Assembly: GCA_027315255.1 (NCBI GenBank)
Contig: DAHUYL010000110.1
Location: forward strand, 4,362-68,361
Source: Solirubrobacterales bacterium
GTDB taxonomy: Bacteria; Actinomycetota; Thermoleophilia; Solirubrobacterales; Solirubrobacteraceae
Reading direction: 5' to 3'
Length of the DNA stretch: 64,000 nt
Shown here: positions 2,420-49,552 of the stretch, one piece after another
Numbering within the stretch: the first letter of the stretch is position 1
Layout: each line of letters opens with the position of its first letter
The notes under the pieces: generated by a model
Databases searched by the model: none
What the model was told of the DNA's origin: nothing
Seen by the model: the letters and a program-made list of their open reading frames with translations, nothing else
Program-made: the position numbers and the translations under genes

Positions 2420-3302
2420 GCTCGAGGTACTCCTTCAGTCGCGGGTTTGCGGCGGCCCGCTCGAGCCGCTCGAAGTGCTCTGTGGCGTAGCCTCCGAAGT
2501 CAACGTCGAGTTCGGAGATGGCCTGCTGCACGACGCCCCAGGCGGCCTCCCGAGCGTCGGAGACGAGCTTCATCAATGTGAGAGCGGCGCGCCGGCCTTG
2601 TGTGGCCGGCGCTCCGTAGTAGGCCGCGAGCAGCCGCGCGTCGGCGTCCTCGTCGAACTCGTTGTTGACCGCGAGGTTGGCGAGGTCGAACAGCCGGTGA
2701 CCGATCCCGGCGTACTCCCAGTCGACGAGCAGCGCCTCGCCGCTCGCGTCGATCAACAGGTTCCCGTTCAGCAGGTCGTTGTGACATGGGACGGGGTCGT
2801 CGAGCGGCAGCCTCCGCGCGACCCGCTGGACCAGGACGCGGGCCCGTTCGAAGGCGGGCGGCGGGGTCCGGTCGCGCCGCGCGAGCAGCTCGGCGTAGCG
2901 GTCGAGCAAGTCCGGCACCCAGAACCGCGCGGGCAGCGCCAGCGCGCTGTCGTGGAAGGCACGCAGCGCGCGGGCGAACGGCGCCGGGTCGCGCTTCAGC
3001 GCGAGCGGATCGACCCGCGTGGCGGTCAGCGCGAACGCGGTGACCGAGCAGTCCGCGTCGGCGTGGAGCAGCTCCGGCCCGATGCCGAGGCGCGACGCCG
3101 CCTGCGCCGCCAGCCGCTCCGCCTCCCGGTCGATCCCTAGCAGCGCGGTGTCCTTGCCGGGGAGACGCACGACGCAGTCGCGCTCACCGAACGTGACGCG
3201 GTAGTTGCGGTTCGTGATGCCGCCGTCGAGCGGCTGCGGCGTGCCGCGGCGAGGGCCGAGCAGCGGCTCCAGGCGGGCGAGGATCGCGGTCAGCTCGAGC
3301 AC
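2403..3302 (-). CDS. Choline/ethanolamine kinase-like phosphotransferase (APH superfamily)
   Basis: GGITNRNY, Brenner motif CHNDLLNGNLL, LVDWEYAG. Overlaps the GcvT start by 17 bp. Confidence 0.85.
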   Translation of the reverse strand: MLELTAILARLEPLLGPRRGTPQPLDGGITNRNYRVTFGERDCVVRLPGKDTALLGIDREAERLAAQAASRLGIGPELLHADADCSVTAFALTATRVDPLALKRDPAPFARALRAFHDSALALPARFWVPDLLDRYAELLARRDRTPPPAFERARVLVQRVARRLPLDDPVPCHNDLLNGNLLIDASGEALLVDWEYAGIGHRLFDLANLAVNNEFDEDADARLLAAYYGAPATQGRRAALTLMKLVSDAREAAWGVVQQAISELDVDFGGYATEHFERLERAAANPRLKEYLEHAATA

Positions 3303-3402
3303 TCGAGTCGGAAAACCTAGCGCGTAAGGGCCGGCTCCTATACCTTCTCGTTCGGCCGATGCCGTCCGAGCCGGACGTGAGAATCAGGAGAAGGAGGGGC
3401 TG

Positions 3403-4743
3403 ATGGAGCTGAGTGAGCTCGAGTCGAGGGTTGCCGCCGGTGAGATCGACACCGTGCTGCTCGCGATCACCGACATGCAGGGCCGCCTCCAGGGCAAGCG
3501 GCTGACCGCGACGCACTTCCTGGACGAGGTCGCCCACCACGGCGCCGAGGGCTGCAACTACCTGCTGGCGGTCGACGTCGAGATGAACACGGTGTCGGGC
3601 TACGAGATGTCCTCGTGGGAGCTCGGCTACGGCGACTTCGCGATGCGGCCGGACCTGGCGACGCTGCGACTCGTGCCGTGGCAGCCGGCGACGGCGATGT
3701 GCCTGGCCGACCTGGAGTGGGCCGACGGGCGCGAGGTGGTCGCCTCGCCGCGCCAGATCCTGCGCCGCCAGCTCGCACGGCTGGCCGAGCGCGGCTGGAG
3801 CGCCAATGCCTCGACCGAGCTCGAGTTCCTCGTGTTCCGCGACTCCTACGAGGAGGCGTGGGCGAATGCCTACCGCGACCTGGTTCCGGCCAACCTCTAC
3901 AACGTCGACTACTCGCTGCTCGGGACCGCCCGGGTGGAGCCGCTGATCCGGCGGATCCGCAACGCGATGGCAGAGGCCGGGCTGCAGGTCGAGAACTCCA
4001 AGGGCGAGTGCAATTACGGCCAGCACGAGATCAACTTCCGCTACTCGGATGCGCTGCGCTGCGCCGACGAGCACTCGATCTACAAGAACGCCGCCAAGGA
4101 GATCGCCGCCCAGGAGGGCATGTCGATCAGCTTCATGGCGAAGTACAACGAGCGTGAGGGCAGCTCCTGCCACATCCACTTCTCGCTGGCGGAGAATGGG
4201 ACCCCACCCACCGCGGGCCTGTTCGCGCGCGACCGCGCGATGTTCGAGTCGTTCCGCGCCGGGCAGCTCGCGTGCCTGCGGGAGCTGACCCTGTTCCTCG
4301 CGCCCAACGTCAACTCCTACAAGCGCTACGCGCTCGGGTCGTTCGCGCCGACCACGGTCGCGTGGGGACGCGACAACCGCACGTGCTCGCTGCGCGTCGT
4401 CGGCGAGGGGCCGGGGCTGCGATTCGAGAACAGGGCCGGAGGATCCGACCTGAACCCGTACCTGGCGCTCAGCGCGCTGATCGCGGCGGGGCTGCACGGC
4501 GTCGAGCGCGAGCTCGCGCTCGAGCCCGAGTACGTCGGCAATGCGTATCTGGCAGCCGACAAGCCACGGCTGCCGACGACGCTGCGCGACGCGCGCGCGC
4601 TGTTCGCGGGCTCGGAGGTCGCGCGGGCGGCGTTCGGCGAGGCCGTCGTCGCCCACTACGTGAACGCCGCCGACGTCGAGCTTCAGGCGTTCGATGCGGC
4701 CGTCACCGACTGGGAGCGCTTCAGAGGGTTCGAGCGACTATGA
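3403..4743 (+). CDS. Glutamine synthetase-like gamma-glutamyl-amine ligase (GlnA4 type)
   Basis: DMQGRLQGKR, KGECNYGQHEINF, GSSCHIHFSL, NSYKR, FENRAGGSDLNPYLA. Neighbourhood matches the actinobacterial glnA4 cluster. Confidence 0.88.
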   Translation: MELSELESRVAAGEIDTVLLAITDMQGRLQGKRLTATHFLDEVAHHGAEGCNYLLAVDVEMNTVSGYEMSSWELGYGDFAMRPDLATLRLVPWQPATAMCLADLEWADGREVVASPRQILRRQLARLAERGWSANASTELEFLVFRDSYEEAWANAYRDLVPANLYNVDYSLLGTARVEPLIRRIRNAMAEAGLQVENSKGECNYGQHEINFRYSDALRCADEHSIYKNAAKEIAAQEGMSISFMAKYNEREGSSCHIHFSLAENGTPPTAGLFARDRAMFESFRAGQLACLRELTLFLAPNVNSYKRYALGSFAPTTVAWGRDNRTCSLRVVGEGPGLRFENRAGGSDLNPYLALSALIAAGLHGVERELALEPEYVGNAYLAADKPRLPTTLRDARALFAGSEVARAAFGEAVVAHYVNAADVELQAFDAAVTDWERFRGFERL

Positions 4744-5516
4744 GCGGCGCCGCGACACTCGGGGAGAGCTCCGAGCAGGTCACGATCGCGACCTCGCTCG
4801 AGCAGGCGGCTTCGCTCGACACGGTGTTCGCGCCGGTCCGCTCGCTGACCGCGTTCGAGGAGACGGTCGACCGGCTCGGCACCGCGATCAGGCTGGGGCT
4901 GCTTCCGCCGGGGACGAAGCTGCCGGCCGAGCGCGAGCTGTGCCACAAGCTCGGGATCGCGCGCTCGACGCTGCGCCAGGCGCTCGTGGCGCTGGCCCAG
5001 AGCGGCCACGTGCACGCGGTGCGCGGCCGTCGCGGCGGGACGTTCGTGGCCGACCCGCTGCCGCCGGCCCGGCCGCCGGAACCGGCCGTCGTGCGCGCCT
5101 GGCGCTCGACCTGCGACCGGCGGATGGCTGTCGAGGTAGGTGTCGCGGTGCTCGCGGCCGACCGTGCGGGCGGCGTCGCGCTCGACGCGCTCGAGGAGGT
5201 GGCGAGCGCGCTCGAGGGAATGCTCGACGACTTCGGCGCGTACCGCCAGGCGGACGTGCGCTTCCACGTCGGGCTCGCCGAGACGACCGGCAACCCCGCG
5301 CTCGTCACCGCGATGACCGAGGTGCAGGGGGCGATGACCGGGCTGATCGCGCTGATCGCGCACCCGCCCGAGGTGCTCGCCTCCGCCAACGCCCAGCACC
5401 GGCGGCTGCTGACGGCGCTGCGCAAGCACGACGAGGCCGGCGCCGCGCGCGCGATGGTCGACCACCTGCGGGGGACCGAGCACGTGCTCGCGGGGTTGAT
5501 GCCGGGGTCGGCTTGA
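4740..5516 (+). CDS. GntR/FadR-family transcriptional regulator
   Basis: ATG 4740 overlaps the GS stop (ATGA). HTH LPAERELCHKLGIARSTLRQAL; FCD domain DVRFHVGLAETTGN...QHRRL. Confidence 0.9.
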   Translation: MSGAATLGESSEQVTIATSLEQAASLDTVFAPVRSLTAFEETVDRLGTAIRLGLLPPGTKLPAERELCHKLGIARSTLRQALVALAQSGHVHAVRGRRGGTFVADPLPPARPPEPAVVRAWRSTCDRRMAVEVGVAVLAADRAGGVALDALEEVASALEGMLDDFGAYRQADVRFHVGLAETTGNPALVTAMTEVQGAMTGLIALIAHPPEVLASANAQHRRLLTALRKHDEAGAARAMVDHLRGTEHVLAGLMPGSA

Positions 5517-5598
5517 CTTTGTGACGATCAGCCGGAAGTATTCCGCCGCTAAGGACGGACCACAACACCTTTAGGGACACCCTTCGAGGAGGGCCGGC

Positions 5599-7219: not shown

Positions 7220-8590
7220 ATGAGCGGAACGCTGACGGTCGTCGAGCCCGCCACCGAAGGCGTGCTCGAGGAGATCCCGCGGGCCGGCGTCGAGGAGGTC
7301 GACGCCGCCGTCGCGGCTGCGCGGGCGGCGTTCCCGGGGTGGCGGGCCCTCGCCCCGGGCGAGCGGGCGGCGCGACTGCGCTCGCTCGTGGCCGCGATGG
7401 AGGCCGAGCACGAGTCGCTGTCGGTTCTGGAGGCACGCAATGCCGGCAAGCCGATCGCCTCGGCGCGCGGCGAGGTCGGGATGGCGATCGAGACGATCCG
7501 CTACTACGCGGCCGCGCCGGAGCGGCTGCTGGGAGACACGATCCCGGTCGCCGGCGGTCAGGCGTTCACGTTCCGCGAGCCGCTCGGCGTCGTCGGGCTG
7601 ATCACGCCGTGGAACTTCCCGCTGGCGATCGCCTGCTGGAAGCTCGGGCCGGCGCTCGCGGCCGGTAACACGGTCGTGCTCAAGCCGGCGGAGCTGACGC
7701 CGCTGACGGCGCTCCGGTTCGGCGCGCTGGCCGACGCCGTGCTCGGTCCGGGCATCGTCAACGTCGTGGCCGGGCCCGGGCGCACGTGCGGCGCCCGGCT
7801 CGTCGAGCACCCGGACGTGGCCAAGATCGCGTTCACGGGCTCGACCGAGGTCGGCCGCTCGATCGCGGCGGGCGCGGCGCAGACGATCAAGCGGGTGACG
7901 CTCGAGCTGGGGGGCAAGTCGCCGAACGTGATCTTCGCCGACGCCGATCTGGAGCTGGCGGCGGCGAGCGTCCCCGGCTCGGTGTTCGACAACGCCGGGC
8001 AGGACTGCTGCGCGCGGTCGCGGATCTTCGTGCAGGAGCCGGCCGTCGAACGCTTCATGGAACTGCTCGAGCGGGCCGTCAAGTCGTTGCGGGTCGGCGA
8101 TCCGCTCGACGAGCGCACCGAGATGGGGCCGCTGATCTCGGCCGCTCAGCGCGAGACCGTCGCCTCGTTCGTCCCGGACGGTGCGCCCGTCGCGTTCCGC
8201 GGCTCGGCGCCCGACGGCCCCGGCTACTGGTTCCCGCCGACGGTCCTGTACCCGATCGCCCCGGATGCGCGGGCGGTGCGCGAGGAGATCTTCGGGCCGG
8301 TCGCGTGCGTGATCCCGTTCGCCGACGAGGCCGACGCGATCGCGATGGCCAACGACACGATCTACGGGCTGTCGGGGTCGATCTGGACGGGCGACGGGGC
8401 ACGGGCGCTGCGGGTCGCCCGCGCGATCGACACGGGCGTGCTATCGATCAACTCCAACAGCTCGGTGCGGGTCACGACGCCGTTCGGGGGCTTCAAGCAG
8501 TCCGGCTACGGGCGCGAGCTCGGCCCGCACGCGCTCGATGCCTACACCGAGGTCAAGTCCGTCTACTACGCAACTGGAGCCCGAGATTGA
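7220..8590 (+). CDS. NAD-dependent aldehyde dehydrogenase
   Basis: ITPWNFP, KPAELTP, FTGSTEVG, LELGGKSP, NAGQDCCA, EEIFGPV, PFGGFKQSG. Confidence 0.95.
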   Translation: MSGTLTVVEPATEGVLEEIPRAGVEEVDAAVAAARAAFPGWRALAPGERAARLRSLVAAMEAEHESLSVLEARNAGKPIASARGEVGMAIETIRYYAAAPERLLGDTIPVAGGQAFTFREPLGVVGLITPWNFPLAIACWKLGPALAAGNTVVLKPAELTPLTALRFGALADAVLGPGIVNVVAGPGRTCGARLVEHPDVAKIAFTGSTEVGRSIAAGAAQTIKRVTLELGGKSPNVIFADADLELAAASVPGSVFDNAGQDCCARSRIFVQEPAVERFMELLERAVKSLRVGDPLDERTEMGPLISAAQRETVASFVPDGAPVAFRGSAPDGPGYWFPPTVLYPIAPDARAVREEIFGPVACVIPFADEADAIAMANDTIYGLSGSIWTGDGARALRVARAIDTGVLSINSNSSVRVTTPFGGFKQSGYGRELGPHALDAYTEVKSVYYATGARD

Positions 8591-9330
8591 GTCGCTTGTC
8601 CGAGAAGGTGTGCGTGATCACCGGCGCGGCCGGTGGGATCGGTCGCGCGACGGCGGAGCGCTTCGCCGCCGAGGGCGCCCGCGTGGTCGGCGTCGACCTG
8701 CGCCAGCACGAGGTCGGCGCGCTCGCGTTGAGCGCCGACCTGACCGACGAGGCAGCGGTCGCCGAGCTGTACGGGCGGATCCGCTCCGAGCTCGGCCGGA
8801 TCGACGTGCTGTTCAACAACGCCGGGATCTCGCCGACGGACGACGCCTCGGTGCTCGACACCTCACTCGAGGCGTGGGAGCGGGTGCAGGCCGCGAACCT
8901 GCGCAGCGTGTTCCTGTGCTGCAAGCACGGGATCCCGCACCTGCTCGAGGGCGCAGGAGGGTCGGTGATCAACACCGCCTCGTTCGTGGCGGTGCTCGGC
9001 GCCGCCACGTCGCAGATCTCCTACACGGCGTCGAAGGGCGGCGTGCTGGCGCTGAGCCGCGAGCTGGGAGTCGAGTTCGCGCGCCGCGGCGTGCGGGTGA
9101 ACGCGCTGTGCCCGGGGCCGGTCGACACGCCGCTGCTGCGCGAGCTGTACGCCAAGGACCCGGAGCAGGCAGCCCGCCGGCTCGTGCACGTGCCGATGGG
9201 CCGCTTCGGCCGTGCCGAGGAGATCGCCGCGGCGGCGCTGTTCCTGGCCAGCGACGACTCGTCGTTCATGACCGCCCAGGCGCTGCTCGTCGACGGCGGG
9301 ATCGCGGGCGCTTACACGACGCCGCTCTGA
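8587..9330 (+). CDS. Short-chain dehydrogenase/reductase
   Basis: TTG 8587 overlaps the ALDH stop (TTGA). TGAAGGIG, FNNAG, YTASKGG, NALCPGPVDT. Confidence 0.92.
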   Translation: MSRLSEKVCVITGAAGGIGRATAERFAAEGARVVGVDLRQHEVGALALSADLTDEAAVAELYGRIRSELGRIDVLFNNAGISPTDDASVLDTSLEAWERVQAANLRSVFLCCKHGIPHLLEGAGGSVINTASFVAVLGAATSQISYTASKGGVLALSRELGVEFARRGVRVNALCPGPVDTPLLRELYAKDPEQAARRLVHVPMGRFGRAEEIAAAALFLASDDSSFMTAQALLVDGGIAGAYTTPL

Positions 9331-9341
9331 TGTTTGTAGCG

Positions 9342-9359
9342 CGTAGTATTTGTGTTACG
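9342..9359. promoter_or_regulatory. AT-rich imperfect palindrome, candidate MarR operator
   Basis: CGTAGTATTTGTGTTACG (CGTA...TACG arms) 40 bp upstream of the MarR ORF. Confidence 0.35.
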
Positions 9360-9398
9360 AACGATTGGCGGTGCGCACTGCCTGAATAGACTGGGGCG

Positions 9399-9869
9399 GT
9401 GATTCCCGGAGTTCCGCCGCCCGGCGACAGCGACCGGGACATGCCGGGGATGCACCCGGTGCTCGCAGGCCACACCGGCTTTCTCCTGAGTCGCGTCGGC
9501 GGCAAGGCGCGCAGGCGGTTCGCGGCCAGGCTGGCGGACGTCGGCCTCAACTTCAGGATGTGGGGCGCGCTCAGCGTGCTCGACGCCGAGGGGCCGATCA
9601 CGCAGCAGGCGCTCGGGCGCTGCGTCGGGATCGACCCGAGCTCGATGGTGGCGACGATCGACGCGCTCGAGGCGGCCGGCCTGGTCGAGCGCCGCCCGCA
9701 CCCGTCCGATCGCCGGGCACACGCGCTGGCGATCACCCCCGCCGGCCGTGCCACGCTCGCCGACGGGCGCCGGCTCGCCGCCGACGCGCAGGAGGAGCTG
9801 CTGTCGCTGCTGAGCGCCGAGGAGCGCGGGCAGCTGCACCAGACGTTGCTGAAGCTGGCTACCGCCTGA
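9399..9869 (+). CDS. MarR-family regulator (start may be ATG 9441)
   Basis: GPITQQALGRCVGIDPSSMVATIDALEAAGLVERRPHPSDRRA...ITPAG winged helix. Confidence 0.9.
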   Translation: MIPGVPPPGDSDRDMPGMHPVLAGHTGFLLSRVGGKARRRFAARLADVGLNFRMWGALSVLDAEGPITQQALGRCVGIDPSSMVATIDALEAAGLVERRPHPSDRRAHALAITPAGRATLADGRRLAADAQEELLSLLSAEERGQLHQTLLKLATA

Positions 9870-11438
9870 TCACGCAGGGGCGGGCGTGCGTCGCCGGCGG
9901 CGCAGCTCGCGCGCGGCCGTGTAGCGCTCGCGCGCGTGCTGGGTCGCGAGCGCACTCCCGACTCCGAGCAGGGTCCAGGTGACGGGATCCTCGAGGAAGT
10001 CGGCATACAGCATCGTGTGCATCACGAGCGCGAGGAAGGCCGCGGCGATCGCGGCCCGGGCCGGCAGCGCGCCGCTCGAGTCGAACACCGTCCGCAGGGC
10101 CGTGAGGACGAGCGCCAGGTAGACGATCAGCCCGAGCAGCCCCTGCTCGGCGGCGACCGTGATCGGGATCGTATGAGAGTCCGACAGCGAGCTCGAGATC
10201 GCCGGGTTCTGATGCTTGTACTCGACCGAGAAGCCGCCCGAGCCGTAGCCGTACAGCCACTCGTCGCCGAACATGCGCAGGCCGCCGGTGATCAGGTTGG
10301 CGCGACCGCTGGAGGCATTGTTGAGCCCCTGGTTGAGGCCGAACGTCTTCGGCGAGATCGCGACCGCGGCGCCCCCGAGCACGAGCACGGCGGCGGCCGC
10401 GATCAGCACCGGGCGCATCCGCCAGCGCAGCGCCGCCAGCGTCGCCATCCCGACGAGCAGCGCTCCCAGGCTCGACCGCGACAGCGTCAGCACGAGCCCT
10501 CCCCACAGCACCGCCAGGACGGCAGTAGCGGCCAGCTGCCGCCGACGGCTCGGCTCGTACAGCAGCACCGCGACCAGCAGGATCATCACGAGCGCCAGGT
10601 AGCGTCCGAAGATGTCGGGGTCGAAGAAGACCGAGTTGACGGTGAAGTACGGGTGATTCGAGTTGGTCGCGATCAGCTTCGGGTTGAGCAGGATCGACTT
10701 CGTCGCCTCCTCGACGAAGCCGAGGCACGCGAACACGACCGCGAGCGCCGCCGTCGCCACCAGGCAGCGGGTGAGCAGCTCGCGATCCCAGCTCAGCTCG
10801 CGCAACTGCCGCTGCAACAGCGCGAACGGCACGTAGAAGAACACGGTGTTGCGCAGTGCCGACTGGAAGTCGACGGAGTAGCTCGCCTGGAGCGCGTACA
10901 GCACCAGGAACGCGGCGAGCAGCTGCTCGAAGCGGTGAATCCCGGCGCCGCCGGCCACCGGGCCGGCGGCGCCGTCGTCGAAACCGAGCCCGCGGCGAGG
11001 CGCGGGAGCGGCGCGGCGGCCGGACAGGACCGGCACCAGCCACGCGAGCGCCGCCGCCGCGATCACCACGTACAACGGAACCAGCAGGTTGTAGGTGTGG
11101 CCGCCGACGGAGATCGGGATCCTGAACGGGAGCGCCACGACCGTCAGCGGCCCGAGCAGCCGCGGACGTCGTGCGATCGCGACCGCGAGCGCCGCGACCA
11201 GCACGACCCCGAGTGCGGCGGCCACGGCTGCGACGGGCGGATGACGGTGGATCACGTCGAGCTGGGGGGAGCGCCAGATGTCGGCCAGCAGCAGCACCGG
11301 CGCGAGCACGAGCGCTGCGAGCATCGCCCAGGCTCGGGAGGAGTCCTCGCGGGCGAGCAGGACCGCGGCCGCCAGCGCCGCGACGGCGATCACGCCGAGC
11401 CGCGGAAGCGGGCCAGTCAGCACGGCGAACGCGATCAC
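9870..11438 (-). CDS. O-antigen ligase/Wzy_C-like membrane protein
   Basis: Polytopic; VFFDPDIFGRYL, LTLSRSSL, SSGR...GYGSGGF...DSHTIPITVAAEQGLLG (Wzy_C-like periplasmic loop with conserved His). Confidence 0.8.
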   Translation of the reverse strand: MIAFAVLTGPLPRLGVIAVAALAAAVLLAREDSSRAWAMLAALVLAPVLLLADIWRSPQLDVIHRHPPVAAVAAALGVVLVAALAVAIARRPRLLGPLTVVALPFRIPISVGGHTYNLLVPLYVVIAAAALAWLVPVLSGRRAAPAPRRGLGFDDGAAGPVAGGAGIHRFEQLLAAFLVLYALQASYSVDFQSALRNTVFFYVPFALLQRQLRELSWDRELLTRCLVATAALAVVFACLGFVEEATKSILLNPKLIATNSNHPYFTVNSVFFDPDIFGRYLALVMILLVAVLLYEPSRRRQLAATAVLAVLWGGLVLTLSRSSLGALLVGMATLAALRWRMRPVLIAAAAVLVLGGAAVAISPKTFGLNQGLNNASSGRANLITGGLRMFGDEWLYGYGSGGFSVEYKHQNPAISSSLSDSHTIPITVAAEQGLLGLIVYLALVLTALRTVFDSSGALPARAAIAAAFLALVMHTMLYADFLEDPVTWTLLGVGSALATQHARERYTAARELRRRRRTPAPA

Positions 11439-43354: not shown

Positions 43355-43418
43355 GAATTAGAGATCGACCGCGCGGCTGCCTGCTTGATCGGTGGAAACC
43401 CGCCGTACACTTCGCGCG

Positions 43419-44516
43419 ATGCGACCGGTCCCCGGGCGACGAGGGTCCGGCACCCGGGCCGGACCCTCGGGAATCAGCGCGCTCGGGGCGGTCGTGCTGG
43501 CGCTGGTCGGGCTGCTCTTGACGCAGGCGCCGGCGGCGCGCGCGGGCGGTCGCGGCGACGCGCGCGTGATCGGGACGTTCACGATGCTCGCGGTCGTCAC
43601 CGAGGCGGTGAACGTGAACGGCGAGAGCCCCGGCCAGATCCTCACACGCGCGTGGGCGATCCGGCCGCGCCGCTGCCGGAGAGACTCGTGCCAGTCGCTG
43701 GTGCTCGTGCGCCAGCGCAGTGACGGCTTCCACAGCGCGCTGACGCTGTCGCGGACCGGGCCTGGAAGCTACGCCGGAACCGGCGTCTTCTACGTGGCGC
43801 TCCGGTGCCGGCGCCGCGTCTACCCGCTGGGCAGCCGGGCGCCCTACCGGATCACGCTGGTGGTCGAGAGATCGACGCTGATCGGCGGGATCAGGTTCGC
43901 GACGACGGTCGGGGCCACCTATGTCAACGCGGCACGCTCCGACACCACCCCGTGTCCGCTGGAGTCGAGTCACGACGCGGCGATCTACGCCGGCAACGTG
44001 TCGGGCGGCTTGCCGGGCGCACCGCGAGCGTCGTTCACCGCAACCGTGCACGGCGCGAGCGGCGCGGTCAGCTTCAGGGACACCTCGCGGCCGGGCCGGG
44101 GCAACGGCCGGATCGTCCGTCGCGCATGGTCGTTCGGCGATCCCGCTTCGCGTCACCGGAACACCTCGACGCTGCGCAAGCCGGTGCGCGTCTACAGCCG
44201 ACCTGGCCGCTACCGGGTCCACCTGCGCGTGGTCGATGCCGATGGGCTGAGCGCGACGACCGCCGCGACCGTGACGATCCCGGTATCGACCACGACGGTG
44301 CCGACCACGACGGTGCCGACGACGACGGTGCCGACCACGACGGTGCCGACCACGACCACGCCGACCACGACCACCCCGACGACGACTACGCCGACGCCGG
44401 CGCTGAGCGCTCGATCGTGGCGAGCACCCGATCGAGCGCATGCACGAGCGGGTCGATCCCGCCGGCGGCCGGCTGGACGACCGCATACAGGCAGCTGGTC
44501 CGGCCGTCGGCCGTGA
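43419..44516 (+). CDS. Secreted protein with a PKD domain and Thr-rich stalk
   Basis: Signal ending ARA; WSFGDP...VYSRPGRYRVHLRVVD (PKD); TTTVP repeats. Start could be 43392 or 43419. Confidence 0.7.
   Translation: MRPVPGRRGSGTRAGPSGISALGAVVLALVGLLLTQAPAARAGGRGDARVIGTFTMLAVVTEAVNVNGESPGQILTRAWAIRPRRCRRDSCQSLVLVRQRSDGFHSALTLSRTGPGSYAGTGVFYVALRCRRRVYPLGSRAPYRITLVVERSTLIGGIRFATTVGATYVNAARSDTTPCPLESSHDAAIYAGNVSGGLPGAPRASFTATVHGASGAVSFRDTSRPGRGNGRIVRRAWSFGDPASRHRNTSTLRKPVRVYSRPGRYRVHLRVVDADGLSATTAATVTIPVSTTTVPTTTVPTTTVPTTTVPTTTTPTTTTPTTTTPTPALSARSWRAPDRAHARAGRSRRRPAGRPHTGSWSGRRP
44288..44397. repeat. 15-bp tandem repeat (TTTVP x4, TTTTP x3)
   Basis: ACCACGACGGTGCCG-type units. Confidence 0.85.
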
Positions 44517-44841
44517 AGAACCGCTGCCACCCGAGCTGGCGCGGCCGGGTCACCTGAAGCTGGCTGGGCGAGAACTCGTGCGGCCGCGGGGCGGGCTGGC
44601 CCAGCGGCCCGAACAGGCCGACGCCGGGCCGGATCCGGTCCGGATCGCTGAACTCGAGCAGCGCCGCGAACGCGTCGCCCGGGCGCATGCGTCCGGTGGC
44701 AGCCCCGCCGTAGTCCCCGTCCGAGGGGAGCAGCGGGAACGTCGCGACGTGCAGCACCGGGCCGGCCTGGTGACGCCGCGTGATCCGGCCCTCCCACCCC
44801 GGCGGCAGCTCGACTGCGAGCCCGTGACCGGTGAGCCTCAC
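44386..44841 (-). CDS. Hypothetical protein, last gene of the mau-like operon
   Basis: GTG 44841 overlaps the mauF-like stop (GTGA). LAVELPPGWEGRI...LHVATFPL...DYGG...LQV...QRFFTADGR..CLYAV. Confidence 0.7.
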   Translation of the reverse strand: MRLTGHGLAVELPPGWEGRITRRHQAGPVLHVATFPLLPSDGDYGGAATGRMRPGDAFAALLEFSDPDRIRPGVGLFGPLGQPAPRPHEFSPSQLQVTRPRQLGWQRFFTADGRTSCLYAVVQPAAGGIDPLVHALDRVLATIERSAPASA

Positions 44842-45506
44842 GCCAGCACGGACACGACGGCCGCCAGCGCCACCAGCTCCGCTGCGACGACCGCGCGCCG
44901 CGCGCGCGGCTCGAGCCTCAGCAGCCGCCGGTGCACCGCGCGCAGCGACTCGGGATCCCGCGCGAATCGCGTCGGCAGCAGCGTGAGCGCCTTGCTCGCG
45001 CCGAACACGGCACCGACGGCCGCGCCGGTGAGCGCGCTGGCGCTCAGCAGCTCGACGGCGAAGGTCGCGTAGATCGCCGCGCAAGCGACCAGCGTGATGA
45101 ACCCGAGGCCCAGCTGGGCGCCGAATCCGAACCCGTAGACCCAACCCCGGTAGCGGGTCATCCAGTCCTCGTTCACCTGGCGCCGGGTCAGCGGCATCCG
45201 CCGGCGCAGCGGGGTTCCGTCGATGACCAGCGCCACGACCAGCACCGCAGCCACCATCGGCGTGCGCCAGCCGCTGCCGGGCAGCAGCGCGCCGACCGTG
45301 CCAAGCAACGTGCCGCCGGCCGCGCCGGCACCGATCGCCCCGACTGCGACTGCGGTCACGGTCACCCGCCAGGAAGATCCGCGCGCGCGTTCGGCGACCG
45401 GAGTGAGGCTCGCGAGCATCGACTGGCCGCATGGAGACCAGGCGGCACGAACCGCGCCGTGGACGGCGATCAGGCCCCCGATCAGGAAGAACACGAGCTG
45501 GCTCAC
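44838..45506 (-). CDS. MauF-like / DsbD-CcdA-like membrane thiol-redox protein
   Basis: AAWSPCGQSML (MauF-type WSPCG), RQVNE, GFGFGAQLGLGF, second Cys in LVAC. Confidence 0.7.
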   Translation of the reverse strand: MSQLVFFLIGGLIAVHGAVRAAWSPCGQSMLASLTPVAERARGSSWRVTVTAVAVGAIGAGAAGGTLLGTVGALLPGSGWRTPMVAAVLVVALVIDGTPLRRRMPLTRRQVNEDWMTRYRGWVYGFGFGAQLGLGFITLVACAAIYATFAVELLSASALTGAAVGAVFGASKALTLLPTRFARDPESLRAVHRRLLRLEPRARRAVVAAELVALAAVVSVLA

Positions 45507-46192
45507 GGACGCTCCTCCGGCTGCCGGGACGGATACAGGCTCGGGTGCCCGGCGGCGATCCCGGAGACCGCCAGCGCCCGGTCGGCGCGCGCGGCGCGCT
45601 CGGCGGTCGTCCGCGCCCCGTGCAGTGCGCTGTCATCGCGCGCGTCGCGCAGGAGCGCGGTGATCTGCTCCCAGCTGCCGGCGCTGCCTCGCCCGATCAC
45701 GCCCTCCCCACCGCCGACCAGCACGAAATGCGGTGTCGCTGGGACGGCCATCTCCTCCCAGGCCTCGGTCGACATGACGAGCTCGACGCCGCGCGGGGCG
45801 AGCTCGAGCAGCCGCGCCAGCCGTTCTCGCTCGGGACCCTTGGTGACGACCACGAGCCGGGCGTCCAGGCGGAGCTCGGCCGGCTCGTGCAGGCCGGACC
45901 ACAGCGGCTCGCAGGCCGTGCAACCGCTGCTGAGGAACGCGAGCAGGGTCGTGGGCGAAGCCGCGCCGAGCGCGATCTTGACGGCATCCCCGTCGAGCGT
46001 CTGGCCGACGATGTCGCGGACCGGGCCGCCCGCCGGAGCCGACGCAGCCGCTCCCGCCACGGTGCCGCGCCCCTCGAGCGCGCCGAGTCGCCGCAGGATC
46101 TCGGCGTGACTTCGCAGGAGCGCGACGATGAACAGCGCCGCAACCACCAGCACTGCGCCCTCGACCAGGATCGCGATCGTCGACGCGGTCAT
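45503..46192 (-). CDS. MauD/TlpA-like membrane-anchored thioredoxin-fold protein
   Basis: N-terminal TM helix ending LLRSHAEILRRL; FLSSGCTAC (CxxC); TPHFVLV. Confidence 0.8.
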   Translation of the reverse strand: MTASTIAILVEGAVLVVAALFIVALLRSHAEILRRLGALEGRGTVAGAAASAPAGGPVRDIVGQTLDGDAVKIALGAASPTTLLAFLSSGCTACEPLWSGLHEPAELRLDARLVVVTKGPERERLARLLELAPRGVELVMSTEAWEEMAVPATPHFVLVGGGEGVIGRGSAGSWEQITALLRDARDDSALHGARTTAERAARADRALAVSGIAAGHPSLYPSRQPEERP

Positions 46193-46195
46193 CCG

Positions 46196-47260
46196 CTACA
46201 CCCCACCGGCACCGGCAAGCTCGAGTGCATCGGGAATCAGACAGGCCGCGTCCTGGGCGCAGACCGCGTTCTCGACTGCCAGCGACGCGCTGCATCCGAG
46301 TGCCGGAACCGTGCTCGGGTTCTCGCACAGCACCATCCGGCAGACGACCGCCGTGACCCCGGCGACGTGGGCGTTGCACTGGCCGTAGCGGAAGACGTTG
46401 CACGCCACCCGCCGCTCGGAACAGGTCCCGCCCGCACACTGGCATCCGCCCGGGAACTCGGCACCCGGGAGCGCGTTGCAGTCGACGTAGTAGCGCAGCC
46501 CGTGCCCGGCGCACAGCTGGCTGCCGGCGTAGTCGGTGCACATCCACCAGCCGCCGGCGAACGTGCCCTCGGGGCAGCTGTTGAGGCCGCCGGTGATCTG
46601 GCAGCAGAACGCCGTCCAGCCGTCGGTGCAGAGCCCGTCAGTGCAGTCGGACGGCATGATCGCGGCGAGCGCCGTACCCGGGTAGAGCAGGTAGCGCAGC
46701 GGCGCCACCGCCAGCGCCGAGCCGACGAGCGCGATCCGCTGGAGGGCGGTGCGGCGCGTGAACCCGCGCTCGAGCGCGAGCGCCGAGCCGCGCGCGAGCG
46801 ACACCGCGATCCGGTCGGCGGCTCCGGCCTCGAGGCTGAAGAGGACGCGCCAGAGCGACGCGCCGATGACGGCGGCGAGCACCGTGAGCGAAGCTCGGCC
46901 GGGAGCGGCGCCGCCGAGCTTGACGATGCTCGGAGCGCCCGTCAGCCCCACGACGAGCGAGCAGATCGCAGACGCCGCTGTGAGCGTCGTCGCGCGCAGC
47001 GCCGACGCTCCCCGGGGCGAGTCGGCGCCGAAGCACTCACACCCGTCGAGTCCCGCCCGCCAGCGGCGGACGTGCGCCGCGGCGAAAGTCGCGTACACGA
47101 TCGCGAGCAGGATCCCGGCGGCCGCCCCCGGGATGACGATGGCGATGCCGGCCAGCGCCAGCTCACCGATCGCCAGCGGACTGACCGACTCCCTCAGCTT
47201 GACTGCGGCGGCGCTCGCGAGCACGAGCGCGAGCGACAGCACGACGGCCGTTCCGATCAT
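46196..47260 (-). CDS. MauE-like membrane domain fused to a Tat signal and an 18-Cys MauA (amine dehydrogenase light chain)-like domain
   Basis: GCECFG (MauE-type CxCFG), FTRRTAL at aa 167-173, CCQITGGLNSCPEGTFAGGWWMC...RYYVDCN. Confidence 0.7.
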   Translation of the reverse strand: MIGTAVVLSLALVLASAAAVKLRESVSPLAIGELALAGIAIVIPGAAAGILLAIVYATFAAAHVRRWRAGLDGCECFGADSPRGASALRATTLTAASAICSLVVGLTGAPSIVKLGGAAPGRASLTVLAAVIGASLWRVLFSLEAGAADRIAVSLARGSALALERGFTRRTALQRIALVGSALAVAPLRYLLYPGTALAAIMPSDCTDGLCTDGWTAFCCQITGGLNSCPEGTFAGGWWMCTDYAGSQLCAGHGLRYYVDCNALPGAEFPGGCQCAGGTCSERRVACNVFRYGQCNAHVAGVTAVVCRMVLCENPSTVPALGCSASLAVENAVCAQDAACLIPDALELAGAGGV

Positions 47261-47389
47261 CCTCGCGTGTTCCCCGGAGCTGCGCCCACTGGTTCAGATG
47301 GACCCCTCGATCCCACCCTGGAACATACCGGGTCGCGCCGACGACGACCTGCCGGCCGCGACTCCGGACCGCCGGCCGTCACGAACGAC

Positions 47390-47420
47390 GGAGGGCCCGG
47401 CACTGAAGGCCGGGCCCTCC
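47390..47420 (-). terminator. Hairpin terminator after groEL
   Basis: Perfect 12-bp stem GGAGGGCCCGGC / GCCGGGCCCTCC, 7-nt loop. Confidence 0.75.
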
Positions 47421-47462: not shown

Positions 47463-49094
47463 CTACATCATCCCCGACATGTCGGGCATGCCACCGCCAC
47501 CGCCACCGCCCGACTCCCTCTCCGGCACCTCGGCGACGATCGCCTCGGTCGTGAGGATGTTCTTGGCGATCGACGCGGCGTTCTGCAGCGCCGAACGCGT
47601 CACCATCGCGGGGTCGATGATGCCCTCGGCGATCAGGTTCACGATCTCGCCGTTGGCGGCGTTCAGGCCGTGGTCCTTCTTCGCCTTGCGGACGTCGTTG
47701 ACGACGACCGAGCCCTCGAGCCCGGCGTTCTCGGCGATCTGACGCATCGGCTCCTCGAGCGCGCGGAACACGATCCGCGCACCGGTCTTCTCGTCGGCGT
47801 CCTCGATCGCGTCGATGTCGAGCGCCTTCTGGGCGACCAGCAGCGCGACACCGCCGCCCGGCACGATGCCCTCCTCGAGGGCCGCGCGGGTGGCCTGCAG
47901 CGCGTCCTCGACGCGGTGCTTCTTCTCCTTCATCTCGGTCTCGGTCGCAGCGCCGACCTTGACGACCGCGACGCCGCCCGACAGCTTCGCGAGGCGCTCC
48001 TGGAGCTTCTCACGGTCGAAGTCGGAGTCGGTGTTCTCGATCTCGTTCTTGATCTGGTTGATGCGGCCCTTGATCGCGCTCCCGTCACCGTTGCCGTCGA
48101 CGATCGTCGTCGTGTCCTTGGCGACGACCACGCGGCGGGCGCGGCCGAGCTGGCTCGTCTGGGTGTTCTCCAGCTTGAGGCCCATCTCCTCGGTGATCAC
48201 CTCGCCGCCGGTGAGGATCGCGATGTCCTCGAGCATCCGCTTGCGGCGATCGCCGAAGCCCGGCGCCTTGACCGCAACCCCCGTGAACGTGCCACGGAGC
48301 TTGTTGACCACGAGCGTCGCGAGCGACTCGCCCTCGACGTCCTCGGCGATGATCAGCAGCGGCTTGCCCGACTGGATCACCTGCTCGAGCACCGGCAGCA
48401 CGTCCCGGACCGAGCCGATCTTCTGGTTGGCGATCAGGATGTAGGGGTCCTCCAGGACTGCCTCCATCCGATCCTGGTCGGTGACCATGTAGGGCGAGAT
48501 GTAGCCCTTGTCGAACTGCATGCCCTCGGGGAACTCGAGGTCCATGCCGAACGTCTGGCCCTCCTCGACGTTGACGACGCCGTCCTTGCCGACCTTGTCG
48601 ATCGCGTCGGCGATCACGTCGCCGATCTCCTCGTCGCCGGCCGAGATCGTCGCCACCCGGGCGATCTGCTCCTTGCCCGAGATCTCCTTGGACTGCGACG
48701 CGATGTTGGCGACGACCTGCTCCACGGCCTTCTCGATGCCGCGCTTGAGCGCCAGCGGGTTGGCGCCGGCCGCCACGTTCTTCAGGCCCTGACGGACGAT
48801 CGCCTGCGCGAGCACGGTCGCCGTGGTGGTGCCGTCGCCGGCGACGTCGTTGGTCGCGGTCGCGACCTCGCGGACGAGCTGCGCGCCCTGATTCTGGAAG
48901 ACGTCCTCGACCTCGATCTCACGGGCGATCGTGACGCCGTCGTTGGTGATCGTCGGCGCGCCGAACTTCTTGTCGAGGACGACGTAGCGGCCCTTCGGGC
49001 CGAGCGTCACCTTGACCGCGTTCGCTACCGCGTCGACGCCCAGCTCGAGCGCCTTGCGGGCCTCCGCGTCGTACTTCAGTTCCTTGTGTGCCAT
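47463..49094 (-). CDS. groEL: Chaperonin GroEL
   Basis: [48 protein letters not shown]-type tail. Confidence 0.98.
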
Positions 49095-49124: not shown

Positions 49125-49418
49125 CTACGACTGGACCTTGGCCAGCACGTCGGACTCGCGGAGGACGAGCAGCTCTTCGCCGTCGACCTTGATCTCCGTC
49201 CCGCCGTACTTGCTGTAGAGGACCTCGTCGCCTTCGGCCACGTCGAGCGGGGTGCGCTTGCCGGTGTCCTCGTTGACCTTGCCGTCGCCGACGGCGAGGA
49301 CCTTGCCCTTCTGGGGCTTCTCCTTCGCGGTATCGGGGAGGACGATGCCGCTGGCCGTCGTCTCCTCCTCCTCGATCGCCCGCACGATCAGTCGATCGCC
49401 AAGGGGCTTGAGCTTCAT
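49125..49418 (-). CDS. groES: Co-chaperonin GroES
   Basis: [34 protein letters not shown]. Confidence 0.98.
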
Positions 49419-49454
49419 CGATGAAACCTCCGGGATGTTTTGATGTTCCGTCCC

Positions 49455-49481
49455 CTGGCACTCTTCAGCCGAGAGTGCCAA
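49455..49481. promoter_or_regulatory. CIRCE (HrcA operator) 1
   Basis: CTGGCACTC-N9-GAGTGCCAA. Confidence 0.92.
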
Positions 49482-49525
49482 CGGCGCAATGATAGCCGGA
49501 TCCGGCGGTCCACCGCAAGCTGATC

Positions 49526-49552
49526 CTGGCACTCTCATTTACCGAGTGCCAG
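49526..49552. promoter_or_regulatory. CIRCE (HrcA operator) 2
   Basis: CTGGCACTC-N9-GAGTGCCAG. Confidence 0.92.

Follow-up and report, generated by a model that had tools for sequence, protein, structure and literature searches.

Polytopic membrane proteins that are inserted through the route of general secretion (Sec) and completed by the pathway of twin-arginine translocation (Tat) are known from four families, namely the actinobacterial Rieske protein QcrA/Sco2149, the haem- and molybdenum cofactor-containing protein Sco3746, a polyferredoxin and the long form of YkuE (PMC3471235, PMC5449189), and it has been suggested that such proteins arise by the fusion of adjacent genes (PMC5449189). 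Release from Sec and hand-over to Tat are governed in them by a twin arginine before the last hydrophobic segment, the low hydrophobicity of that segment and a positive charge after it (Tooke et al. 2017, PMC5449189). MauE is not among these four families and is mentioned 0 times in PMC5449189; it is a quinone-linked, DsbB/VKOR-like membrane thiol oxidase with a CxC-F-G active site, in which helix 1 carries a conserved Lys and helix 2 a conserved Glu as probable quinone ligands (preprint 10.64898/2026.03.05.709764). Here we describe a gene within 64,000 nucleotides of DNA from a Solirubrobacterales bacterium (contig DAHUYL010000110.1; this whole stretch is called the window, and its numbering is used for all coordinates) that joins a MauE domain to a Cys-rich domain through an internal twin-arginine segment, and whose product is likely to be a new dual case, inserted by Sec and finished by Tat.

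The gene lies on the minus strand (46196..47260) and, as the original prediction had it, is a single open reading frame (ORF) of 354 amino acids (aa) plus stop, without an internal stop or frameshift. It encodes a MauE domain, a retained Tat signal peptide and an 18-Cys domain, in that order. Logan contigs from two run records match 46100-47400 with 0 mismatches and 0 gaps at a depth of ~14, although these are assembled contigs, not raw reads, and both runs seem to share their data; the stretch at 46800-46860, where a check of the reads had been proposed, is in agreement at the level of contigs. Over the same interval the two runs, X1 (2019, 'mine drainage metagenome') and X2 (2021, 'soil metagenome'), have identical contig sets, depths and loose ends, and may be one dataset deposited twice. 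An independent 3.1-kb contig (locus L001) encodes an identical fused protein followed by the same three downstream genes.

A protein search with the fused protein returned 633 homologues, more than 100 of them full-length and fused at 50-69% identity. The best 120 are nearly all 340-390 aa long, match the query over its full length with 50-69% identity and belong to Solirubrobacteraceae and related metagenome-assembled genomes. In a scan of one genome per GTDB species we found 213 relatives, and among the best 80 loci the CxC motif and the Cys-rich domain share a single ORF in 72, whereas more distant relatives within the Solirubrobacterales/Thermoleophilia (L094, L096) are split; the question of whether homologues are fused or split, raised with the original prediction, is answered in this way by distance. 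The closed genome of the cultured Conexibacter sp. DBS9H8 (L065, NZ_CP097128.1, locus 2773-3996) has a fused ORF with the internal motif SRRDFL, followed by the same MauD-like, MauF-like and X genes, and so carries the same four-gene operon. Across 115 fused homologues the conserved residues are spread over the whole protein, with the twin arginine and K21 each kept in 114/115, E33 and R189 in 115/115, the 18 Cys of the C-terminal domain in 114/115 and a CxC-[FL]-G-type motif in essentially all; the linker between the two domains also has a strong consensus, (D/E)RLVxxSAxFLERRxSRR. That the gene is an artefact or pseudogene, produced by misassembly, by a frameshift or by a stop codon having been lost very recently, is scarcely credible. 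The window is metagenome-derived, and the sequences aligned to it were contigs, not raw reads, but an independent assembler yields the identical sequence, the fused frame recurs in 72/80 of the best species-level genomes including that of a closed isolate, and both halves contain invariant functional residues. By this conservation the fusion is natural and conserved, neither an assembly error nor the result of a recently lost stop codon; the latter, which had been offered as an alternative, is excluded because the fused frame is kept among more than 100 homologues.

The relatives of the C-terminal half indicate where the internal segment came from. A profile restricted to the C-domain found 399 relatives in a 50%-identity library, mostly stand-alone proteins in which the domain begins at residue 50-70. 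The N-termini of these stand-alone relatives, for example MTDKMLDRAGSFLARRTSRRGFLIRTAAVGTALAAGPIRYLVRPAEALA, are canonical Tat signal peptides and match aa 148-199 of the window protein position by position, the common elements being an n-region helix, SRRGFLxR, a short hydrophobic region (h-region), P-x-R-Y-L and P-x-x-A-x-A. The fused R169-R170 aligns with the SRRGFL of the stand-alone proteins, and the linker is homologous to the first ~20 residues both of these precursors and of MauA precursors. Four stand-alone relatives pass the NCBIfam model TIGR01409 TAT_signal with 18.3-23.4 bits against a cut-off of 16.7, and one is named a Tat-signal protein by NCBI. Two split operons, L006 and L016, have a five-helix mauE whose last bases, ATGA or GTGA, form a 4-nt overlap with the start of the precursor gene; MauD-like and DsbD_2-like genes stand beside the split mauE in both, and a homologue of X is present in L016. 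Because these split operons pair mauE with a Tat-signal precursor gene that aligns to aa 148-199, the window gene is, on this comparison, a mauE joined to its downstream neighbour with the entire signal peptide kept, that is, the n-region helix, twin arginine, 13-residue h-region, basic c-region and Ala-x-Ala. By the same alignment, the internal twin-arginine segment is a retained homologous Tat signal peptide and not a chance motif. The earlier description of the gene as a maturation factor covalently joined to its cargo was therefore the right one, since the cargo is a separate Tat-signal product encoded after mauE in the split operons. Both evolutionary states, split and fused, survive in related genomes, which makes the proposed origin by fusion of neighbouring genes open to direct study. 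A candidate for a second, independent fusion in another subfamily (P0203/L015) was rejected; small ORF fragments lie ahead of a MauE part that is itself truncated, and we treated it as a damaged locus.

The retained signal begins with the linker (aa 148-168, 46757..46819), which corresponds by homology to the former signal-peptide n-region. The twin arginine R169-R170 (46751..46756) follows in the context F-T-R-R-T-A-L-Q-R175, so that FTRRTAL occupies aa 167-173 as originally located. The h-region IALVGSALAVAPL (aa 176-188, 46697..46735) comprises 13 uncharged residues bounded by R175 and R189, and R189 (46694..46696) places a positive charge immediately after it, within a P-x-R-[YF]-[LMI] motif present in 115/115. 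A conserved Ala-x-Ala, A197-L-A199 (46664..46672), also found in the stand-alone relatives, stands before the first Cys of the C-terminal domain and is the predicted signal peptidase I site, from which the mature protein would start at A200. An ALA-type cleavage site had been predicted, and a conserved one does exist, but it is not the ALA at 182-184, where position 184 varies. The other candidate nearby, A184-V-A186, runs into the invariant P187 and is disfavoured because a proline at +1 blocks signal peptidase I. Basic residues in the c-region are a known Sec-avoidance feature. The position of R189 directly after the h-region fits the Sec-release or Sec-avoidance feature of PMC5449189, and all of the sequence features given there for Sec release and Tat hand-over are found in the fused protein. 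The h-region is also the least hydrophobic segment of the protein, with a median best 19-aa sum of 6.74 compared with 0.62, 2.28 and 2.27 for helices 1, 4 and 5, respectively, values that come from a simplified version of the Hessa-2005 scale and not from the full delta-G predictor. A TATFIND-like pattern with at least 13 uncharged residues is present in 112/115 fused homologues, the uncharged run being exactly 13 residues in most of them. Given this short run and the conserved Ala-x-Ala, the segment resembles a signal peptide that can be cleaved, not an anchor, and the pattern of conservation argues that the internal signal is under selection.

A signal peptide in the middle of a frame might still be used at the N-terminus of a separate product, as the original prediction allowed in naming internal initiation at the in-frame GTG 46804. 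In its general form, this account has translation starting within codons 145-160 to give an ordinary Tat precursor, with the full-length fusion minor or non-functional. There is indeed an in-frame GTG at V153 (46802-46804), initiation at which would give a normal n-region of 16 residues, and GAGG/GGAG lies upstream, possibly a relic of the ancestral ribosome-binding site. However, the distance from GGAG to GTG is 17 nt, too far for a well-spaced Shine-Dalgarno sequence, and the codon is not conserved; the V153 column is Asp or Glu in most homologues, while the one conserved Met/Val column of the linker, V156, belongs to the helix LV. Any Met at all is found in the linker of only 25/115 fused sequences, and the window protein has Ala (GCC) at the position matching the stand-alone Met. 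Moreover, were the products separate, selection would not have opposed a stop codon between them in more than 100 diverged lineages. We regard internal initiation as improbable, and take the segment as part of the full-length fused protein in what follows.

The N-terminal half (aa 1-147, 46820..47260) was modeled by AlphaFold2 from a 35-sequence alignment with a predicted local distance difference test (pLDDT) score of ~90-96. Where about four transmembrane segments had been expected, the model has five helices ahead of the twin arginine, each at pLDDT ~90 or higher: helix 1 (aa 2-24, 47189..47257), which ends in the conserved K21 (47198-47200); helix 2 (aa 28-42, 47135..47179), with the invariant E33 (47162-47164); helix 3 (aa 45-68, 47057..47128), which ends in RRWR; helix 4 (aa 87-107, 46940..47002); and helix 5 (aa 120-142, 46835..46903), with the invariant W137, which canonical and split MauE proteins share. 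The CECFG at aa 74-78 (47027..47041), located as originally stated with C74 and C76, corresponds to the CxC-F-G active-site motif of MauE (preprint 10.64898/2026.03.05.709764). The window protein itself matches Pfam PF07291 with E 2.6e-4 and 21.8 bits, short of the gathering score of 27, and 31/35 close homologues match the model, the best with E 4.5e-15. The domain aligns over all five helices with the MauE of five mau/aau clusters, with the Lys, Glu and CxC invariant, and within the fusions C74-E-C76-F-G, K21 and E33 are invariant in 114-115 of the 115. The alignments thus identify the N-terminal part as a bona fide MauE with all of the published catalytic hallmarks, and, as CxC-[FL]-G, K21 and E33 are kept, as a part that is under selection.

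Whether the internal signal could reach the Tat machinery depends on the topology of this MauE. The CxC loop lies between helices 3 and 4 and the twin arginine lies after helix 5, so the two are on the same side of the membrane; a Sec-to-Tat hand-over requires that the C-terminal end of helix 5 be cytoplasmic, and therefore also the CxC loop. The mean number of Lys and Arg over the 115 fusions is 14.3 for loop 1, loop 3 (the CxC loop) and the region after helix 5 together, compared with 1.55 for the N-terminal tail, loop 2 and loop 4. The same comparison, with explicit helix boundaries, for eight MauE proteins (five canonical, two split and that of the window) gives 9-12 against 0-3, with the CxC loop on the Lys/Arg-rich side in 8/8. 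MauD and MauD-like proteins agree, as 9/9 have no Lys or Arg before their single anchor and 2-5 directly after it, a pattern that predicts a cytoplasmic thioredoxin domain; in the MauD-like protein of the window, no Lys or Arg precedes the single hydrophobic segment and RSHAEILRRL follows it. The charge bias strongly favors a cytoplasmic location for both the twin arginine and the CxC loop.

The best explanation of these features, which we hold to be probable though well short of certain, is a conserved mauE-cargo fusion of a mau-like maturation module in which MauE is inserted by Sec and a probably cleaved cargo is then exported by Tat. The five MauE helices would be inserted co-translationally by Sec/YidC with the N-terminus out and the C-terminus in, such that the linker and the twin arginine remain in the cytoplasm. 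The weakly hydrophobic h-region, flanked by R175 and R189, would then escape Sec insertion, and the Cys-rich domain would fold while tethered at the membrane before the Tat translocase carries it across. Signal peptidase I would finally cut, probably after A199, so that the domain is freed and MauE keeps one additional helix at its C-terminus. With a working signal, the active site of MauE and the thioredoxin domain of the MauD-like protein would face the cytoplasm and could oxidize the cargo before Tat export. A disulfide protein is rejected by Tat unless it has been oxidized in the cytoplasm (PMC9436932), for which reason an inward-facing oxidase tethered to its substrate would be useful.

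Several observations weigh against this scheme. The window segment has no TIGR01409 match, and residues 169-200 of the fused P0013 score 13.8 bits, under the cut-off; the consensus Phe of SRRxFL is mostly replaced in the fusions (TAL/TLL/SAL), and no Tat genes were seen in the window by a crude TatA motif scan of its 64 kb. The topology argument itself draws on the positive-inside rule and AlphaFold2 helix counts, and two four-helix MauE proteins complement an E. coli dsbB mutant, with a CxC that TOPCONS predicts to be periplasmic (preprint 10.64898/2026.03.05.709764). Were the MauE core of the window protein oriented in the same way, the twin arginine would lie outside and the signal would be dead.

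Some of these points speak for a different account, in which the signal is vestigial and export is by Sec only. MauE would then have its N-terminus in and its CxC in the periplasm, and helix 5 would lead the chain out as in VKOR-thioredoxin fusions; Sec would move the linker, the old Tat signal and the Cys domain, oxidation would take place in the periplasm beside the CxC, and the twin-arginine segment would serve as a tether or docking element only. In addition to the replacement of DsbB in E. coli by MauE of two phyla with a predicted periplasmic CxC (preprint 10.64898/2026.03.05.709764), and to the sub-threshold, mostly Phe-less internal signal, inversion of homologous membrane cores is rare, and a substrate tethered beside its oxidase makes sense in the periplasm as well. 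Nevertheless, this topology would put ~14 Lys/Arg outside and ~1.5 inside per protein, against a bias that canonical and split MauE share and that the MauD anchors match, and Sec would have to translocate a linker with a mean of 7.4 Lys/Arg right after helix 5. A stretch of 13 hydrophobic residues would be left exposed outside the membrane, and the retention of the twin arginine (114/115), R175, the 13-residue run, R189 and the Ala-x-Ala across ~50% divergence would be unexplained. Sec-only export therefore strikes us as unlikely, though it deserves to be taken seriously.

Given that the topology decides between these accounts, the choice may be put as one between a five-helix, mau-type MauE oriented opposite to the MauE of the preprint, together with a Tat signal that works, and a shared orientation together with a useless signal. 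We favor the former with moderate confidence, because it alone explains the retained twin arginine, R175, 13-residue run, R189 and Ala-x-Ala and fits the positive-inside rule. In the literature on the localization of MauD and MauE, we found only preprint 10.64898/2026.03.05.709764. The canonical proteobacterial MauE, which has five helices, and its MauD (L009, L011-L014) have the same charge bias, which predicts a cytoplasmic CxC loop, C-terminal tail and thioredoxin domain, at odds with the periplasmic model of the preprint. A broader and more tentative idea, which we consider possible but short of probable, is that MauE and MauD of the mau type act together at the membrane's cytoplasmic face as a natural, quinone-linked, inward-facing disulfide system that folds Cys-rich cargo (MauA and the MauA-like family) for acceptance by Tat. 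The fusion would then act as a polyprotein whose cargo is oxidized while tethered, exported by Tat and cut by signal peptidase, and would be a natural topology reporter for the inward-facing MauE/MauD. If true, this would explain the Tat signal on the six-disulfide methylamine dehydrogenase light chain, and the MauE family would hold two opposite membrane orientations. Either the CxC of the mau-type MauE subfamily faces the cytoplasm, which bears on the maturation of disulfide-rich Tat substrates such as this light chain, or a conserved Tat signal exists without a Tat function, and both outcomes would be informative.

The C-terminal domain (aa 200-354, 46199..46663) contains, besides its 18 Cys, W239 (46544-46546) and D260 (46481-46483), which are invariant family-wide. 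Full-length AlphaFold2 modeling with 35 close homologues gave a good MauE part and an unusable C-domain (pLDDT ~30), whereas a 49-sequence alignment that included the stand-alone relatives gave a compact C-domain at pLDDT 92-97. Some stand-alone relatives have LGFP or CWB2 cell-wall repeats at the C-terminus, others a beta-propeller or, instead of the Ala-x-Ala, a lipobox. The 18 Cys suggest disulfides or cross-links, and because its relatives carry Tat signals, lipoboxes and cell-wall repeats, the domain is, by homology, extracytoplasmic. The same relatives bear on a further account of the protein, in which MauE has its N-terminus in, helix 5 leads out, the chain comes back through the h-region as a sixth helix and metal is bound by the 18 Cys inside the cell. 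Such an arrangement would reconcile a periplasmic CxC with a membrane-embedded h-region, and many of the Cys are invariant. Yet Tat signals at the N-terminus, lipoboxes and repeats that bind the cell wall occur in the stand-alone proteins, 13 uncharged residues would not suffice for a stable helix, the C-domain has no CxxC-type metal-cluster motifs and the twin arginine would be outside; a cytoplasmic Cys-rich domain is accordingly very improbable. Among the wider relatives, the group of P0139/L016 2869-4497, P0203/L015 5001-6179, P0142, P0146 and P0154 includes predicted Tat lipoproteins, with a twin-arginine h-region ending in VAASGC, and fusions to a Beta-prop_PLL propeller or to LGFP/CWB2 repeats. 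Such a union of a light-chain-like domain and a beta-propeller is reminiscent of amine dehydrogenases with their paired light and heavy chains.

The resemblance to MauA was examined at several levels. The C-domain has no match by sequence or profile in Pfam, NCBIfam (PF02975, TIGR02659) or the PDB, including phmmer and hmmsearch against the PDB, whereas Paracoccus MauA itself scores 2e-53 and 2.8e-120 on the light-chain models PF02975 and TIGR02659. A Foldseek search of the PDB with the confident C-domain model had 2.9 as its lowest E, and none of its matches was a light chain, although Foldseek may be weak on small, irregular, disulfide-rich folds. With hhalign, 49 family members against eight MauA precursors, signal included, gave Prob 96.8-97.5% and E ~2e-10; the mature domains alone gave a score of 30.0 (E 2.3e-4, Prob 45%) compared with a maximum of 18.8 in 21 column-shuffled or reversed controls, and when a shallow alignment of fused proteins alone was compared with one MauA sequence, no match was obtained. 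W239 stands opposite Trp57, one of the tryptophans of the tryptophan tryptophylquinone (TTQ) cofactor, and D260 opposite Asp76 of MauA in the profile alignment, but the second TTQ Trp has no counterpart. Among the called genes around the fused gene in L001-L003, operon partners included, there is no large subunit and no member of the MauG/cytochrome c peroxidase family; L004 is less clear, as several neighbors have no Pfam match. With no model, PDB or fold match, and no second TTQ Trp, large subunit or MauG, we do not assign the C-domain to MauA; by the profile comparison, its kinship with the light chain of amine dehydrogenases is distant at most. On a megaplasmid of Thermomicrobium roseum (L010, NC_011961) we also noted three paralogous MauA-like light-chain genes with TRRxW(L) signals (5124-5540, 9001-9420 and 9720-10172). 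The first two directly follow paralogous genes for hypothetical proteins of ~400 aa (3871-5127 and 7796-9004) and have no entry in the PLSDB feature table. The three genes might bridge MauA and the 18-Cys family.

Downstream of the fused gene, on the same strand, the operon continues with three genes. The first (45503..46192) encodes a MauD-like, membrane-anchored thioredoxin-fold protein of 229 aa with a C91-T-A-C motif, which matches TIGR02661 with E 6.5e-5 (below the cut-off) and Paracoccus MauD by BLASTP with E 1e-5. The second (44838..45506) encodes a MauF-like/DsbD_2-like polytopic protein of 222 aa (Pfam DsbD_2, E 1.2e-3; BLASTP to Paracoccus MauF, E 0.002), the WSPCG motif of which includes the SPCG also found in Paracoccus MauF. 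The last gene of the module (44386..44841) overlaps the MauF-like gene by 4 nt and encodes the conserved protein X, of 151 aa and without a signal peptide, which was called in L001 and has homologues in L002, L016 (169 aa) and the Conexibacter locus L065. X has no family match; the module seems to have in it a fifth conserved component, which is possibly a cytoplasmic chaperone for the conserved signal n-region. Convergent with X, and overlapping its end, is a plus-strand gene (43392-44516) for a secreted PKD-domain protein with a TTTVP/TTTTP repeat tail, and a PKD-domain gene likewise adjoins the fused gene in L002/L003 and in L004. The genes directly upstream of the window's fused gene are groEL and groES (47463-49094 and 49125-49538, minus strand), with a GC-rich hairpin at ~47394-47417 that is likely to terminate groEL; transcription of the MauE operon therefore probably starts separately.

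Compared with the known members of the mau and aau clusters, the locus has, beside a small Cys-rich protein, homologues of MauE (24-42% identity among seven aligned MauE, with the K, E and CxC invariant and five helices), of MauD, with CxxC and the same N-terminal anchor pattern, and of MauF, with SPCG; the Tat signal of the cargo also resembles the MauA signal xRTSRRGFLxR. It differs from these clusters in the absence of a large-subunit, MauG or amicyanin gene at the fused loci, in a gene order of E-A-D-F instead of F-B-E-D-A, in having 18 Cys in the domain as opposed to the 12 of MauA, and in the production of MauE and cargo as one polypeptide. The MauE of preprint 10.64898/2026.03.05.709764 likewise has CxC-F-G, the Lys and the Glu, and likewise occurs as an oxidase fused to the protein it acts on. 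However, here MauE is joined to a presumed substrate that bears a Tat signal itself, and not to a thioredoxin-fold relay, there are five helices and not four, and for the mau-type MauE/MauD pairs the orientation predicted from the charge bias is the opposite one.

With the dual Sec/Tat proteins the fused protein shares Sec-type helices, a loop predicted to be cytoplasmic, a twin arginine before a last, weakly hydrophobic segment, a positive charge and a globular C-terminal domain that is probably extracytoplasmic, and the fusion of adjacent genes suggested for those families is visible here, as the split and fused states both exist. In contrast to them, its last segment resembles a cleavable signal peptide and not a permanent anchor, its cargo is disulfide-rich and without a known metal or nucleotide cofactor, and its Sec part is the presumed maturation enzyme of the cargo and not a helix bundle that anchors a subunit. 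We infer the Tat dependence, cleavage and topology of the fused protein, and the presence of the whole operon in the cultured Conexibacter sp. DBS9H8 makes the hypothesis testable in practice. As a candidate for a new dual Sec/Tat family, one with an unusual logic of enzyme plus substrate, the fused gene is a strong one; it would be the fifth such family, and the first in which the Sec part is the cargo's own maturation enzyme and the Tat segment looks cleavable.

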